Part shown: positions 23,105-30,783 of the stretch, in pieces
Layout: each line of letters begins with the position of its first letter
How positions within the stretch are numbered: the stretch's first letter is position 1
Source: Paramecium tetraurelia
Lineage: Eukaryota
Length of the DNA: 64,000 nucleotides
Direction of reading: 5' to 3'
Assembly: GCA_000165425.1 (NCBI GenBank)
Contig: CT868096.1
Coordinates: 372,001-436,000, forward strand
Notes under the pieces: generated by a model
The model's input: the letters and a program-made list of their open reading frames with translations, nothing else
Told to the model about the DNA's origin: nothing
Databases searched by the model: none
Program-made: the position numbers and the translations under genes

Positions 23105-25527
23105 ATGTTTATAATTTTATTATTCTAGACTATTTATTCATTGGGGCCAGCCAATTTTTTATGTGGATTGAGACTCTATTATGCCCAAGAATCATATTTC
23201 CTACTTGACTAATAGAATGAGAAGTAAATTGTATTTATTATACTTGAGTACTATGCCATACATCCTTACAAGCAAATCTCCTCATTTTGCATTGGATGTT
23301 TAATAGAACTATTAATCAGCACATGGGATGAACAATAATTCATATTTTCTCATTAATTTCCCTGATGCTTACATATTTGCAGGAAATGCTAGTGATCTAT
23401 AATGGTTGTAAATTTAGGAATTCAAGGTAAAACAAAATTAAACTAAAGCTGACGTTTTAATCTATAATGATTATTATGGTTATTATGTAGATAAAGCAAA
23501 TCAAGGTGGTCATTTGTTAATTTCTAAACAAAATCTGATTAGAGAATTTACATTTGGTAAAACGGATGCAGTTGATAAATACCTCAAACCTGGATTTATT
23601 TATATTATTGCTTGGTCCTCGCAAGGAGATGTTAGTATGATATTCAAAAGGTTTATCTAATTCATTACTTAATCAGAAGGCATTAATTATTGCGAATTAA
23701 AGACTATAACGAATTCTTTAGATTAAATAAAATGTAATTTGGATTTTAATTTCGATCAATTAACTTTCCATACTCCGGATCTCTATCATCCACCAGTGCA
23801 TTATTATTTAGGGAATCAGACCATCAATGGTTCTCTTACAAACCAATACTTTACAAAAAATTATCCAGGATTATAAGTTTTTGTTGCTTAGAATTTAAGC
23901 GATACATTAGAAATTAGATTACCTATAAAAAACATGGAAACTCATTAAAATGCTGTTGAATCTCCTCTAAGTGGGTTAATCATTACGATTTAATAAGAAA
24001 ACAGAGGATTTATACATATATTAATCTTTGAAAGCGATGAGGGAATCATTATCAACTATAAAGAAGATGAAAATTTGGCTTATGTCACTATAGGAAAGAC
24101 AGATTCAAAAGTGTTTGTGTTTTCATTTGTTACCTCTTCTTTTACAAAATTTCCTTAAATAGAATTAATATAGCATGTATTTCAAGATTGCGTTACGATA
24201 ATTTAATAGCGTAATAATATTTGCGAAAAACCAAATAAAGAATGTTAAAGTCTTTCATATGATTATTTTCATTAATTTGATTTTAATTTAAATTTTGATT
24301 AATAAGTAACATTTAAAATCAATGGAGAATCATTTTAAGCTCCTTACATAGAATTGTATGATGATTTAAGTACAATTTAAAATGAATTTACTAATTTTAT
24401 ATCATCAACAATAAACAATAGGGAAATGAATCATGGGGGATATATTGGGTCATTTTTGAGAATTACTAATAAAAATCAAAGCATTAATTCATTAATAATC
24501 AATGAACAGAATGAAAAATTAGAGGTGTATTATAATATTAATGATAACATATGTATGTAATTTTATGCTATTCATAGATTCCCATTCAGTTTAAAATATT
24601 ATTGGAAGAACGTATGTTTTAGTATTTGTATCATAAAACGAATTAACAGATATGGAATGTCTATAAATTTTTAGAGAATTCATTCACCATATTCAAAAAA
24701 TCTTCATAATTGAATAATGTAAGCAATGATAAAATAATGATAGTGGAGTAAAGATGTGAAAGTTAAATCAACAATTTTGATGTGAAACCCATTCAGTATA
24801 AAGATATTCACAAATTAGTAAAGTAACCAACTGAATTGCTTTAGAAAACTCACTAATAAGATTTTGATAAGTAAAATGATTTTGAATATTCAACCAATGA
24901 GGATCCAGACGAAGATTTAGAATATTTGGATGAAGATGAACAAATGTACGCTATGGATTATGAAAATTAAGCATAATTTATGCCTGATAATTAAGAATAA
25001 TTTATGCCCCAAAATTAAGATTAATTTATGCCTTAAAATTAAGCTTAATTTATGCCTCAAAACTAAGGATAATTTATGCCACAAAATTAAGGCTAATTTA
25101 TGCCTTAAGATTAAGGTTAATTTATTCCTTAAGATTAAGGATAATTTATGCCTCAAATGTAAGGCTAATTTATGCCACAAATGTAAGGCTAATTTAATCC
25201 TAATGAAGATCCCTCAATGGAAATGTCTTAAGAATAATTTATGGAATATCAAAGAATGTTGGACATGGAGTAATAATAGCAATTTTAATAATAGTATTAA
25301 TAAGAATAATAACAACAACAATCTAGAAAAGTTGAGGAAATTCATTTTAACAATCCTGGAAATTAAAAAAAATAATAATAATAAATCCATAAAGTTGAAT
25401 AAAAAGTTTAAAAAAAGTAATAAAACTAAAAAACTGTATAAAAAAAATAAAATGTAAAACCACCTGAAAAGGTTCAATAGAATTTAAGATAAAATAAATA
25501 AAAAAATTTGTAATAATAATAACAATA

Positions 25528-25566
<39 letters not shown>

Positions 25567-25978
25567 TTAAAACTAATTGCCTTCTCATAATGAAGATTCA
25601 AAATATTAGCAAACGTTTCATTAAAAAGAAGAGTATTAGGATAAAAATGATAGGTATAGAAGAAGAGATTATAGAGAAAGAGGAGATTACCCTGGAAGGA
25701 GAGATGAATATTATGGCAGAAGGGAAGATTACGGCAGAAGGGATGATTATGGCAGAAGAGATGATTATGGAAGATCAGATGATTATTATGGTAGAAGGGA
25801 TGACCATTATGGAAGAAGAGATGATTATTATGGGAATGATTATGATAGGGAAGATGGTAGAAGAGGGCCTGCATTGACTGGTTAAACCATAATGGTTCCT
25901 AAAAATCCAAGTGATTAAGAACTAGGCAGATTCTTTAGAGAAGTAATAGGAAGATTATAAAATAAAGGAAAAAATTGA
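23105..25978 (+). CDS. Predicted secreted protein: signal peptide, beta-rich region, then QFMPQNQG repeats, polyQ and GRRDDY repeats
   Basis: MFIILLFQTIYSLG signal-like start; one continuous code-6 frame with 3 tiny introns through to TGA at 25976-25978. Confidence 0.7.
24965..25204 (+). repeat. 24-bp coding tandem repeat, about 10 copies (8-aa unit NQ[G/A/D/E]QFMPQ)
   Basis: Unit close to AATTAAGGCTAATTTATGCCTCAA, repeated head-to-tail with no spacers. Confidence 0.9.
25694..25834 (+). repeat. 18/21-bp coding repeat encoding GRRDDY(Y), about 7 copies
   Basis: GGCAGAAGGGATGATTAT-like units in frame with the 23105-25978 gene. Confidence 0.85.
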
Positions 25979-26157: not shown

Positions 26158-26538
26158 ATGCAAGCTTCATAAGAGAAAATACCAAATTTAGATCTCAGCA
26201 ATAGAAGATCACAATCAATGGTCACTTCAGATCCAGCCATTAAGAAACTTAAATAAACATTGTAGGTTGATAATGAAACTAGCACTCGTTAATTGAAACG
26301 AAAGTAAGGCGATATTTTGGATTCAATTCTTGAGGATGCGAATTTGATACTAAGAAATAAACTTTTGGAAAAGAATATTTATTAACTGAAGGAATTAGGA
26401 TTACTTAAATAACATGATCCTACTATAGCAGTTCAATAAGGATTTAAAAAAAGTAATTATGTGATGAATGATTATCATAATAAAAGTACTACAAATGGAT
26501 ATGCCAGAAATTATGGAGGATTGTTTTATAATAGATGA
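26158..26538 (+). CDS. Hypothetical 126-aa protein with a C-terminal NDYH..T.NGYARNYGGLFY motif
   Basis: Intronless code-6 ORF from ATG 26158 to TGA 26536-26538. Confidence 0.7.
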
Positions 26539-26619
26539 TTTATCTTAATAAAATTTAATAAACAATTAAAATACTACTTCTAAATAATATTCATGTAAAA
26601 ATATGGCCATTCTTAATTA

Positions 26620-28827
26620 TCATTATTCTTAATCTTCTAGTTTGGGTTGCTTATTAAGATTTTCCATAAACTTCTCTAACGGACTAATTGTCTTAGCATT
26701 TAATTCTAACTATTTATTCTTCTACATTTGTTTTAGAATTTTTTTGTTTTTTTTCGTTTCTTCCATATCAAATAAGGTTTAATTATCAGATATTTATAAG
26801 CCTGACTGGCCATATCGATTTAGATGTTTAATTAATTATATTTTAAATTTCTTTTTTTACTCATCTAACCTATTTTCTATTTCATTCAAATCATTTCTAT
26901 GTCCAAGCATAGGTTATTGTTATACAAATTAATCTTTTGTTATTATCGGTTGGAGTAAATTAGGAGAAGGAATCATAGATTGATATTTCCTGGATAATTC
27001 TTAAAACTCATAATTTGAGAAATCCTCCAAATTAGACTATCTATAGATTTCCTTGTTATAGGATGAATAATTTCTAAGGTTCTATTTTTCTTATTTCTTC
27101 TTCTTTAATGCATATTCATCATCTTAAGAATGATAATGATTTTAAGAATTCAAGTCATTTGAAAAATACACGCCATCACTTAATTATTCTATTATTTTGT
27201 TATCACATTCAATAAATTAACTAGGATTGCGATGAAATAATTCAAAGCATGGAAATGCACAGATAAATATTTTATTTTCATTGAGTAGTTTTTCACATAG
27301 TCTACATCTATAAAAAGGTTTAGTTAATTAATTGAATTTCATACAAACAACACAATACTTAAATGATTCCTCTTATTTTTAAGGGATTGGAGTATGATAT
27401 GATTCAGAGTATTATTTGCTTAGGCCAAACTCTAATGGCAATGTATTGGTAGTACATTCTTAAAATGTTGAATTCATTTTTTTTTTTGCTTTCTATAAAT
27501 TACTTTCTATTTGTTGCGCTTTCTCAAAAGTAAAGATTTTAGCTAAACTCAATCTAAAGTTGGATTATAGCATGTCCTCAATCAACAATGAAGTATTATA
27601 GATCATAACTTCAAAGTATTCTTCAAACTCTATTCTTAATTAATTGAATCCTTCGACACTGTTTAATTAGGAACATAAGTAAAAATTGCTTCTATATTGT
27701 AATAAATTCATGATTGAGTGTTCGTAGTATTGTTATTAAACATCCTTATAGACTTTAAGAAAACTTTGATTTGAGATTGATTGTTTTTAGGGGAATAAAT
27801 GTACTTAGTATTGATTTTTGATTAAATATAATTATTCTATTTAATATTCACCTGGCAATAAGTTTTAAATTGTTTGATGTAATCTTTTTTCATAAGTAAT
27901 AACAGGGTAGATATCTTAATCAGTTAATTGTATGATTCTTTCCAAGCTCAATTCAAACATGACATATAATATATGATTGTGATTAGAGTATTTGAAGAGC
28001 ATTCTCATAAGTCGATTAATCCTATCCTCTTATTGAATCCTATCAGAAACTACTATCAAATCTATAATGATAAGTCGTGAGAAATCAAAGAGATAGTATG
28101 CTGTATATGCCTTATAAATTTACTCAATAAGAATCAATTCTTATTCTGGTTAGCAAATAGATTTAACTTGTTTCTGAAATTATAGTACTTCATTTAGCAA
28201 TTTAGATTTAGCATTTTAGTTAAGGTACATAAATAAATGAGTGTCTAGAAATTTAAATCTGCCAATGGGCATCATGTATTCAATCCCGCATCTAAGCCAA
28301 GGTTCTGCATTCCAATAATCGTCAATGTAAGGAAATCTAAAAATTCCAAATAATATTTAGAGTCCAAAATAAAGTTGGATCTCTGTTTCTTTATATTTCT
28401 TTTTATTGTATTAAGATGCAATTTTAGAAGGTTGTTACTTTAAGTCTTCTTCTAGAATTGAAAACAAATATTGATTAACTAAATCAGTTAAAGTGACAAT
28501 GAGAGAAGTTGGGAAGAAGTGATCATATACATTTTATGGTGTTTGGAGTTAGACAATTTTCTTAGCATGATATTATGAATAATCCAAAATGTCAGAGGAT
28601 GTTGGTATGATTGCTTCAATGATTTTGAAAGTTCTTTCCAGATTTATTTAAGAGTTATATTCTCTTTCATCATCAGAACGTGGTTAAGTACAATATTCTT
28701 CACAATCACTAAGAGTAACTTCTTATTTCCAAAGGCAATTATATTTCCTAACTTTTTCTGAGATTTGTTATGTTTGGGGCAAGGAAGTCACAACTGTAGT
28801 AGAATTGATTATCACTTCTTGTTTCAT
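26620..28827 (-). CDS. PGML: PiggyMac-like (PgmL) domesticated piggyBac transposase, catalytically inactive, 735 aa, intronless
   Basis: piggyBac core blocks: TPQNVYDHFFPTSLIVTLTDLVNQY, EIQLYFGLQILFGIFRFPYIDDYWNAEPW, MPIGRFKFLDTHL, PEQELILIE, NHILYVMFE and MIYNTSLL..FRLSLA. A Cys-rich domain H..CVVC..CRLC..CAFPCFELFH follows at 27232-27396, then a charged C-terminal extension. Confidence 0.88.
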
Positions 28828-29011
28828 AGTAATTATTAAATTAGCAGGTCTGATATGGGATTAGATAATTATCTTGGAAATAAAGAGATTTTTATTGATA
28901 TCCTTTTATTTTTTTAGAAATTGTAATTATATGCATATGTCTATATTTGCTTATTTAATATAGAGACAATATGAAAAGTTTAAATTAAATAATTTCTTAA
29001 TTTCTCTCTTA

Positions 29012-30783
29012 ATGCAACGCGAAAATTATAATGATAATAAAAGTAGAAGCAGAAGTCGCAGTAAGTCTAGCAAAAGGAACAATTAACATAACCAACCCTA
29101 AAATTAGAAATCTCAAAAAGAAGGAAATTGTTACTAAAATGATAATAAAGAATATATATCTCACAATTCTAGTCCAATTAGATTATAAGAAGAACATCAT
29201 ATTAGCGATGAACATACTAAGTAAATATTGTGATAATGCAGAGAAAGCAAAGAAGAATATAAGATCTTAGATTAGAATTAAAAGATCAATCTAGCGCCTA
29301 ATAATTAATTTTAAATACAGTGTGAAAATTTAGATTTGGGCAATAGACATTATACAACGATTCCTCTACCTTAGAAGGATCTTAATAGTAACATAAAGGA
29401 GTCCCTTGATAAATAGGTATATGAAATGATCACGATAAATGACAGTAGCCAAGAAGACAACCGAGATGCTGGCAGTATTGGAGATAAGACAGGGCATCAT
29501 CATGATATCGATTAAGTTGAGAATTCTAAAATGGATTCAACAAGAAATGGCCAACTAGGATAAAAAATACCAAAAATTTAGAAAACAAAAATAAAAAGAG
29601 AATCGTAATAACAAACTAAATAAACAAAATAATCTTTTGATTGTATAGATTTAACTAAGGATGATACTATCTTATCCTTTTTTGGACTTAATCATCCAAT
29701 GTTATAAAGTTCTTTGGAATACAATAAAAATGAATTATTCGAATTAGTGGAGCCTTATGAATATTAATGTGGAAATTTCATGATTAGTTTAGGAATACAA
29801 GGCCATTATACTGCTATTGTCACTCTGCCTAGTCTATCCTAAAAGAAGGCTGTTTATTATTTATTTATGAAGTTCCAATTTGATCAAAAAAACGTTTATT
29901 GCATGATCCCTGAAGATGACTAAACAATATTACTGGTTAATTCTAATATTTAAACACTTTATTATTACTGTAACTCAAATACTCAATAAAAGGGAAACCA
30001 TAAAACAACCTTCTAAGAAAGCATCCTGAAATACAAATTTCCATATATCTTTCCAACTCTAATCCGAAAATTTGTAGTTTCTTATTAAAAAAATGATTAA
30101 TAGATTCGATATCAAATCAATTATGATTCGCATGCTATTCAACTGGCAATTGAAGATTATTATTAGGATATTCCTGGGCATTTAATAACAGGTACTAGTC
30201 ATCCTATATTGAAAATTCTTTTTATTAAAACGCAAAATAATTAGATTCCTTAATTTTACTACAAGTTTTTAAGTGTTCCACTCTATGAAGGACAATTCAG
30301 TTTGAAGGCTTCACTTCTACAAAATTCCAATTTAATTGTTGTAGAGAGAAGGTTAATTACTAAATAAATTTTTAGGTTCTTAAGTCCCTTCTGTTATGGC
30401 ATCCATTCAATCAAAATCGAAGTCAATCGAATTACAAATGTTATTATAATGAAATAATCTGGAAAAGATTAAGAAATTCAATCAAAAAATATTCAATAAT
30501 TTTGGGATGAAGTCCATTAAAAATATCTTTAATTATATCCTTCGTATAATTTTAATTTATCTTTAGGAAATTGTTATATAATTACTTTGTAGAACTCATA
30601 AACTAGGATAGAAAAGTGTTAGAAAAGTATAAGAAATGGAATCAATTAAATGAGTACTTGAGTAAATCTCAGTAATTCAAACCTAATAAGTAGAATGAGA
30701 AGCCCATTATCCTCAATAATAAGGAATTCTTTTGTTTTTCTATAGAGGACATAAAAAATGGAAACAGAATTAAATATTAATGA
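29012..30783 (+). CDS. Hypothetical protein with an RS-rich N-terminus, SUMO-interacting-motif-like peptides and a folded-looking C-terminal domain
   Basis: MQRENYNDNKSRSRSRSKS...MITINDSS...CIDLTKDD; three tiny introns; TGA at 30781-30783. Confidence 0.75.

Follow-up and report, generated by a model that had tools for sequence, protein, structure and literature searches.

The minus-strand reading frame at 26620–28827 of a Paramecium tetraurelia contig is PGML3c, an intact and transcribed gene for a predicted catalytically dead piggyBac relative

The DNA analysed here, called the window, is a stretch of 64,000 nucleotides of the Paramecium tetraurelia contig CT868096.1 (assembly GCA_000165425.1, positions 372,001 to 436,000, forward strand) with a G+C content of 23–31%; positions below are those of the window. 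Its minus strand carries an open reading frame (ORF) at 26620–28827, which is the published P. tetraurelia gene PGML3c (Bischerour et al. 2018, eLife 7:e37927, PMC6143343) and hence already known. The gene belongs to the PiggyMac-like (PgmL) family of domesticated piggyBac transposases, the partners of PiggyMac (Pgm) in the excision of internal eliminated sequences (IESs). We consider it highly probable that PGML3c is a single-copy host gene with a catalytically dead product, which, if active, most likely serves as a non-catalytic architectural subunit of the PgmL3 type.

The ORF is a single intact frame of 735 codons, running from an ATG at 28827–28825 to a TGA at 26622–26620 under the ciliate code (NCBI table 6), in which its 52 in-frame TAA/TAG codons (47 TAA and 5 TAG) are read as glutamine. 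Given that TGA, the sole stop codon, has a frequency of 0.0175 per codon, 735 codons would stay open by chance with p ~2.4e-6, and TGA-free runs across all six reading frames of the window had a median of 25 codons and a 99th percentile of 317. A single copy of the ORF was found in the window by tblastn. The exact 735-residue protein is on record in NCBI, UniRef and eukprot, encoded on a single 950,118-bp contig. A megablast comparison of the ORF with a phage collection, which is of little informative value here, gave no match.

Transcription was assessed with raw stranded oligo-dT reads from three paired runs (X20–X22) and with a fourth run (X3); the depth of these runs carries no information on induction in autogamy. 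The first mate lay on the plus strand in every read pair from the ORF, but on the minus strand over the flanking plus-strand genes on both sides. Because the first mates over the ORF were opposite to those of both neighbours, the ORF is transcribed from the minus strand. The X20–X22 reads spanned 26535–28820 with a mean depth of 0–6.5 per bin and showed no joints in the ORF; none fell in 28821–28947. One 2300-nt contig of run X3 was colinear with 26610–28909, without a gap or a differing letter. X3 represents spliced RNA because its contig for a neighbouring gene lacks a 21-nt GT..AG intron, and therefore the gap-free colinearity indicates that the ORF has no intron. A preliminary description of the locus, made from the sequence alone, had listed an intact, intronless ORF of 735 residues, and both the table 6 translation and the RNA reads and contig confirm this.

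The identity of the gene follows from the published alignment. Residues 86–433, the part covered by Supplementary file 1 of Bischerour et al. (2018), were compared by eye with the row "PgmL3c-Ptet" and agreed letter for letter (348 residues, 12 of 12 blocks). The row numbering is consistent, with position 1 corresponding to Y86 and position 320 to F405. In Supplementary file 2 of the same paper, PgmL3c-Ptet is PTET.51.1.G0020217 / GSPATP00000770001. The window protein was 91, 85, 85, and 73% identical to its orthologues from P. octaurelia, P. primaurelia, P. pentaurelia, and P. sonneborni, respectively, and 51% identical to both PgmL3a and PgmL3b of P. tetraurelia; GSPATT00003675001, which is PgmL3b, is a member of the 90% cluster formed by these paralogues. 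Identity to PgmL1 (GSPATT00004877001, 578 residues) was 24%. In quick maximum-likelihood trees with supports from the Shimodaira–Hasegawa-like approximate likelihood ratio test (SH-aLRT), the window protein fell in a five-species PgmL3c clade (SH-aLRT 99–100). Its sister group was the PgmL3a/b clade (SH-aLRT 94–100), with GSPATT00003675001 and a 735-residue scaffold_1 protein among its members, and PgmL5 and PgmL1 lay on separate long branches outside PgmL3. PGML3c is the paralogue of the intermediate whole-genome duplication (WGD) within the PgmL3 group, and no evidence against its identity was found.

The preliminary description had placed the protein in the PgmL5 group by its size and C-terminal extension, and such membership could account for the extension that follows the cysteine-rich domain (CRD), as in PgmL5, and for the detectable homology to PgmL5b (GSPATT00017164001, 990 residues; BLASTP E 1e-19). 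That homology, however, amounts to 25% identity over 464 residues, compared with 51% to PgmL3a/b, and the phylogeny that had been proposed as a check places the PgmL3c clade apart from PgmL5b and PgmL1, with PgmL5 forming a clade of its own (SH-aLRT 100). The layout differs as well: the core starts at residue 417 in PgmL5b but at about residue 96 here, and the CRD occupies 761–840 in PgmL5a, 471–550 in PgmL3a, and 478–541 in the window protein. According to Bischerour et al. (2018), an N-terminal extension is found in PgmL4 and PgmL5 and not in PgmL3. The window protein has none, and its CRD near 471–550 and predicted helical C-terminal extension complete the PgmL3 layout; as a Paramecium piggyBac relative with an incomplete DDD (three-aspartate) triad and a Pgm-type CRD it is also a PgmL protein by definition. 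Together with the letter identity to the PgmL3c row, these observations leave the PgmL5 assignment with next to no probability. The protein had been considered novel only if it fell outside PgmL1–5; being PgmL3c, it does not.

The window protein is a piggyBac relative, as indicated by a profile match of its core, by profile–profile comparison, and by its predicted fold. When the core (residues 77–446) was searched alone, it matched PF13843 (DDE_Tnp_1_7) with 48.1 bits (cut-off 22.4) and E 1.3e-12, covering profile positions 1–133 of 349 only. Because this match stops at the first catalytic position, the remainder was tested by profile–profile comparison and by the predicted fold. An hhalign comparison of six PgmL3 proteins with ten canonical piggyBac-like proteins gave a probability of 99.5% and E 9e-23 over 410 columns, spanning residues 80–537 and so covering both the core and the CRD. 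Sequence searches of the PDB found only piggyBat, at E 0.16 when the single sequence was the query and at E 0.0052 when the profile was used. An AlphaFold2 (AF2) model of residues 77–560, built from 23 aligned sequences, had blocks with a predicted local distance difference test (pLDDT) of ~53–91 over model residues 21–300. Its top three Foldseek matches in the PDB, all at E 3.8e-8 to 2.4e-7, were piggyBat 9c0f, with two of its chains, and piggyBac 6x67_C; no other chain was matched at E 0.001. Structure alignment with VIA gave Z 11.5 to 6x67_C (308 aligned residues, root-mean-square deviation (rmsd) 9.3) and Z 10.6 to 9c0f_D (271 aligned residues, rmsd 9.1). Tn5 transposase, retroviral integrase cores, and the Mu transposase core aligned to model residues 150–346 with Z 9–10.5. 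In the model, residues 226–422 are thus predicted to keep an RNase H-like fold. The piggyBac core blocks noted in the preliminary description are borne out by the excised core, hhalign, and Foldseek.

Some results of the same methods call for caution. The full-length 735-residue protein gave no PF13843 match with hmmscan, even at E up to 10. The core model has intermediate confidence (mean pLDDT 65.7, predicted template modelling score 0.56), its global TM-scores to piggyBac and piggyBat are just 0.27–0.29, and PF13842 (zf-Tnp_2) matched the CRD at residues 478–532 with 17.4 bits, below the cut-off of 24. The PF13843 search, which had been proposed as a check, therefore gave a divided answer: it succeeded with the core and failed with the whole protein. 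Five of the six PgmL3 proteins match PF13843 at full length, the window protein being the exception, and its 91%-identical orthologue scores 51 bits in such a scan. Perhaps, as a guess, the match is lost to HMMER filters acting on the K/Q-rich tail. The case illustrates a trap of the method, as the lack of a piggyBac profile match in the whole protein, taken alone, would have led to a wrong rejection of piggyBac membership.

None of the three catalytic positions of the window protein holds Asp or Glu. In the published alignment, D268, D346, and D447 of the Trichoplusia ni (T. ni) piggyBac stand opposite I234 (in LILIEQ), M290 (in ILYVM), and Y383 (in RSNF-Y) of PgmL3c. With hhalign, I234 and M290 were confirmed, but the third Asp was placed opposite M373 and not Y383, which leaves an uncertainty of ten residues for the third position, although neither alignment puts an acidic residue there. 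Position 234 is Ile in 4 of 4 PgmL3c and Val in 2 of 2 PgmL3a/b proteins, and M290 and Y383 are invariant in all six. The QYxPxKP segment corresponds to an 18-column gap after Y238 in hhalign. An apparent alteration of all three catalytic Asp positions had been noted in the preliminary description, as had the missing QYxPxKP segment, and its coordinates for the altered motifs LIE and LYVMFE were exact (L233-I234-E235 at 28131–28123; L287 to E292 at 27969–27952). Since the three Asp positions are non-acidic and the QYxPxKP segment is lost, the protein is not expected to cleave DNA by the DDD mechanism. Judged from its sequence, it is a catalytically dead derivative rather than a non-member of the piggyBac superfamily.

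Six fragmentary PgmL3-like proteins were seen in Logan assemblies, with 27–39% identity to the window protein and a composition richer in A, R, and V. In four of the six, inspected by eye, the first catalytic position likewise holds a residue other than Asp (ELILYEQ, ELIVYTR, ELVLWRQ, ELVLMGV), and so dead PgmL3-type piggyBacs may also occur beyond the aurelia species.

The CRD of the window protein aligned with that of canonical piggyBacs in hhalign. Its ligands are H478, C492-x2-C495, C508-x2-C511, C523-x3-C527, x4-H532, and C541, and these nine Cys/His residues are invariant in all six PgmL3 proteins. The preliminary description had correctly recognized a cysteine-rich domain, which it wrote as H-CxxC-CxxC-CxxxC-xxxH, but the last spacer consists of four residues and not three. 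The Pgm CRD has been described as a binuclear cross-brace zinc finger whose Cys/His arrangement is common to all PgmL CRDs (Guerineau et al. 2021). In the in vitro assays of that study, the ligand of the Pgm and PgmL CRDs was not DNA but the histone H3 tail, which they bound weakly; PgmL3 was represented by the construct PgmL3a 471–550.

Downstream of the CRD, an AF2 model of residues 540–735 (seven sequences, mean pLDDT 60.8) contained two long helices at residues 642–674 and 685–713, where the pLDDT blocks were mostly 88–93. These helices agree with the published C-terminal extension of PgmL3, PgmL4, and PgmL5, which is predicted to be rich in coiled coils (Bischerour et al. 2018). A crude script for heptad periodicity did not single out the C-terminal extension, and the predicted helices come from AF2 alone. 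The piggyBac architecture is thus kept: an N-terminal helical region of the DNA-binding/dimerization type is followed by a core with an RNase H-like fold, a zinc-finger domain rich in Cys and His, and an extension with helices at the C terminus. The coordinates of these parts are collected in Table 1.

Table 1. Features of the PGML3c locus in window coordinates (aa, amino acid residues of the 735-residue protein)
Feature	Position	Strand	Basis or remark
PGML3c coding sequence, 735 codons + TGA	26620..28827	-	ciliate-code translation; exact protein on record in NCBI/UniRef/eukprot
Extent of colinear transcript contig, 2300 nt	26610..28909	-	run X3
Short N-terminal region, aa 1-85, no long extension	28573..28827	-	upstream of published core alignment
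piggyBac transposase core, aa 86-433	27529..28572	-	identical to published PgmL3c-Ptet row
PF13843 DDE_Tnp_1_7 match, aa 96-236	28120..28542	-	profile positions 1-133/349, 48.1 bits, E 1.3e-12
Predicted RNase H-like (integrase/transposase) fold, aa 226-422 (model residues 150-346)	27562..28152	-	AF2 model, structure alignment
I234, place of first catalytic Asp (T. ni D268)	28126..28128	-	published alignment and hhalign
M290, place of second catalytic Asp (T. ni D346)	27958..27960	-	published alignment and hhalign
Y383, place of third catalytic Asp (T. ni D447)	27679..27681	-	published alignment; M373 (27709-27711) in hhalign
CRD, aa 478-541	27205..27396	-	sub-cut-off PF13842, CRD alignment, invariant Cys/His
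C-terminal extension, aa 542-735, K/Q/L/N-rich	26623..27204	-	AF2 model, composition
Predicted long helices, aa 642-674; aa 685-713	26806-26904; 26689-26775	-	AF2 model
Spacer, 81 bp	26539..26619	.	to convergent gene 26158-26538
Spacer, 184 bp	28828..29011	.	to divergent gene from 29012

Homology to piggyBac (PF13843, hhalign, Foldseek) would also be expected if the ORF belonged to a mobile or recently immobilized piggyBac element instead of a host gene. However, no terminal inverted repeats (TIRs) bracket the ORF within the two spacers; the inverted repeats found are AT-rich and match at 70–89%. The end motif TTAACCC occurs in the window 6 times (5.3 expected), with the nearest copy 2.6 kb from the ORF; plain TTAA is too frequent at the base composition of the window to be informative. 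As far as the window and the protein records go, on which the copy number rests, the ORF has one copy in the window and one PgmL3c gene is present in each of five aurelia species, every orthologue on one contig. The catalytic triad is lost in all PgmL3c proteins compared. The flanking host genes are, moreover, close and transcribed, both from the plus strand as judged from the stranded reads: the convergent ORF 26158–26538 ends 81 bp from the PGML3c stop codon, and the divergent gene starts with an ATG at 29012, across a spacer of 184 bp. A mobile element at this site is accordingly hardly credible. The preliminary description had named TIRs, TTAA duplications, and dispersed copies as signs of such an element; neither TIRs nor a further copy in the window was found, and its distances to the neighbouring genes proved exact. 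Its general assignment to the domesticated, inactive piggyBac proteins of the PgmL family is likewise supported by the alignment, the trees, the single copy in the window, the missing TIRs, and the transcription.

The divergent gene (29012–30661, plus strand) contains a 21-nt GT..AG intron at 29221–29241 that is precisely absent from its X3 transcript contig. Excision of this intron removes an in-frame TGA (29231–29233) and fuses the frame starting at 29012 with that of 29426–30661. The convergent gene 26158–26538 (plus strand, 126 residues) had the top read depth of the examined stretch (up to 22.9 per bin, run X20), with numerous fragments starting at 26309/26310 and 26339. Further away, the plus-strand ORF 24551–25978 encodes a low-complexity protein of 475 residues with roughly twelve QFMPQNQ-like units in tandem, a stretch of 19 Gln, and C-terminal RRDDYG-like repeats. 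A Pfam scan of five neighbouring ORFs, including 24551–25978, 26158–26538, and both pieces of 29012–30661, found no families, and no tRNA genes were found in a scan of the window.

What PgmL3c might do has to be judged largely from its paralogues. PgmL3a localizes to the developing macronucleus and co-precipitates with Pgm in pull-downs, and the double knock-down of PGML3a and PGML3b yields no sexual progeny (PMC6143343). PGML3 depletion has been reported to destabilize nuclear Pgm and to disturb its localization; excision persists for ~17% of IESs under these conditions, and for these it tends to err at the boundaries, with shifts of 10 bp. In a 2025 preprint, PgmL1 and PgmL3 form a condensin I-independent set of subunits. 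All PGML genes are induced in autogamy, with PGML3c as the least expressed gene of its group (PMC6143343). In a full-text literature search, the name PgmL3c was found in Bischerour et al. (2018) only.

Several points weigh against a functional part for PgmL3c itself. In Bischerour et al. (2018), RNA interference (RNAi) against PGML3c gave no phenotype, its combination with RNAi against PGML3a or PGML3b gave no post-autogamous phenotype, and PGML3c is the sole PGML gene for which the authors were unable to confirm an important function. The assays of Pgm binding and localization used PgmL3a and not PgmL3c. In addition, PgmL3c evolves faster than PgmL3a/b in the same species pairs: identity between P. 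tetraurelia and P. sonneborni was 72.8% for PgmL3c and 90.5% for PgmL3a, and the corresponding values for P. tetraurelia and P. primaurelia were 85.3% and 94.6%.

These data raise the question of whether PGML3c is a duplicate that drifts to loss of function and has become dispensable while its transcription goes on. The RNAi results and the low expression speak for such drift, as does a divergence up to ~3 times that of PgmL3a/b (27% compared with 9.5% differences, P. tetraurelia versus P. sonneborni); the recent-WGD twin of the gene, moreover, was seen in none of the five species. On the other hand, the PgmL3c frame is intact at 729–735 residues in all five aurelia species (P. tetraurelia, P. 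octaurelia, P. primaurelia, P. pentaurelia, and P. sonneborni), the gene is transcribed, and a frame of this length would stay open by chance with p ~2e-6 only. None of the nine Cys/His residues of the CRD varies, and conservation of this domain is as high in PgmL3c (90.6% identity, P. primaurelia versus P. sonneborni) as in PgmL3a/b (89.1%, P. pentaurelia versus P. sonneborni). We therefore regard drift to loss of function as quite unlikely.

As to gene number, PgmL3c is represented by one protein in each of the five species and PgmL3a/b by two, except for one in P. octaurelia. The recent-WGD twin of PGML3c seems to have been lost everywhere, with PGML3a and PGML3b both kept.

Alternatively, the fast evolution of PgmL3c could reflect a specialized PgmL3 subunit, which might act on a subset of IESs by tuning the positioning of Pgm, act in conjugation or under stress, or modulate assembly of the complex; such roles would escape the published feeding-RNAi assays in autogamy. 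The retention of the gene since the intermediate WGD is consistent with specialization, and so is its pattern of divergence from PgmL3a/b, in which the CRD (80% identity) and the core (56%) are conserved and the parts at the N and C termini (42%) have diverged. PgmL3 and PgmL1 are also the subunits that published work ties to boundary choice. Faster evolution is, however, also expected from relaxed constraint, and we consider specialization an improbable though not negligible explanation. The divergence pattern as such fits a weakened but real constraint, with which both slow decay and specialization are compatible.

The reading that we prefer, a dead single-copy host gene of the PgmL3 group, would give the protein a modest role. 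By analogy with PgmL3a/b, PgmL3c, if it acts, would most likely be a non-catalytic architectural subunit that could fill the position of PgmL3 next to the Pgm endonuclease within the developing macronucleus. There, PgmL3 helps to retain Pgm in the nucleus and to place it correctly at the TA boundaries of IESs. The own contribution of PgmL3c is probably minor or redundant under laboratory autogamy.

As PGML3c received its name and description in 2018, its recognition here is no discovery. What is added is that PGML3c is intact and transcribed and keeps its zinc-finger ligands, yet diverges up to ~3 times as much as its essential paralogues.

Compared with known systems, the window gene is the same as the published PgmL3c (PTET.51.1.G0020217), with residues 86–433, the dead triad, and the group layout alike and no difference seen in the published portion compared. 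Among solved structures, T. ni piggyBac (6x67) and piggyBat (9c0f) are the best matches in both sequence and structure, but PgmL3c lacks their DDD triad, QYxPxKP-type segment, TIRs, and integration at TTAA. The catalytic excisase of IESs, Pgm, is likewise a domesticated piggyBac with a core, a CRD, and a C-terminal extension. In contrast to PgmL3c, which has none of the three catalytic Asp residues, Pgm is a protein of 1065 residues with D401, D491, and D609. PgmL3a (the 735-residue scaffold_1 protein) and PgmL3b (GSPATT00003675001) differ from PgmL3c in being jointly essential, in the binding of PgmL3a to Pgm, and in their slower evolution, whereas PGML3c is reported without an RNAi phenotype. 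They nevertheless resemble it most closely, with 51% identity, the same length class and domain order, non-acidic triad residues (V/I, M, Y), and an identical set of nine Cys/His residues.

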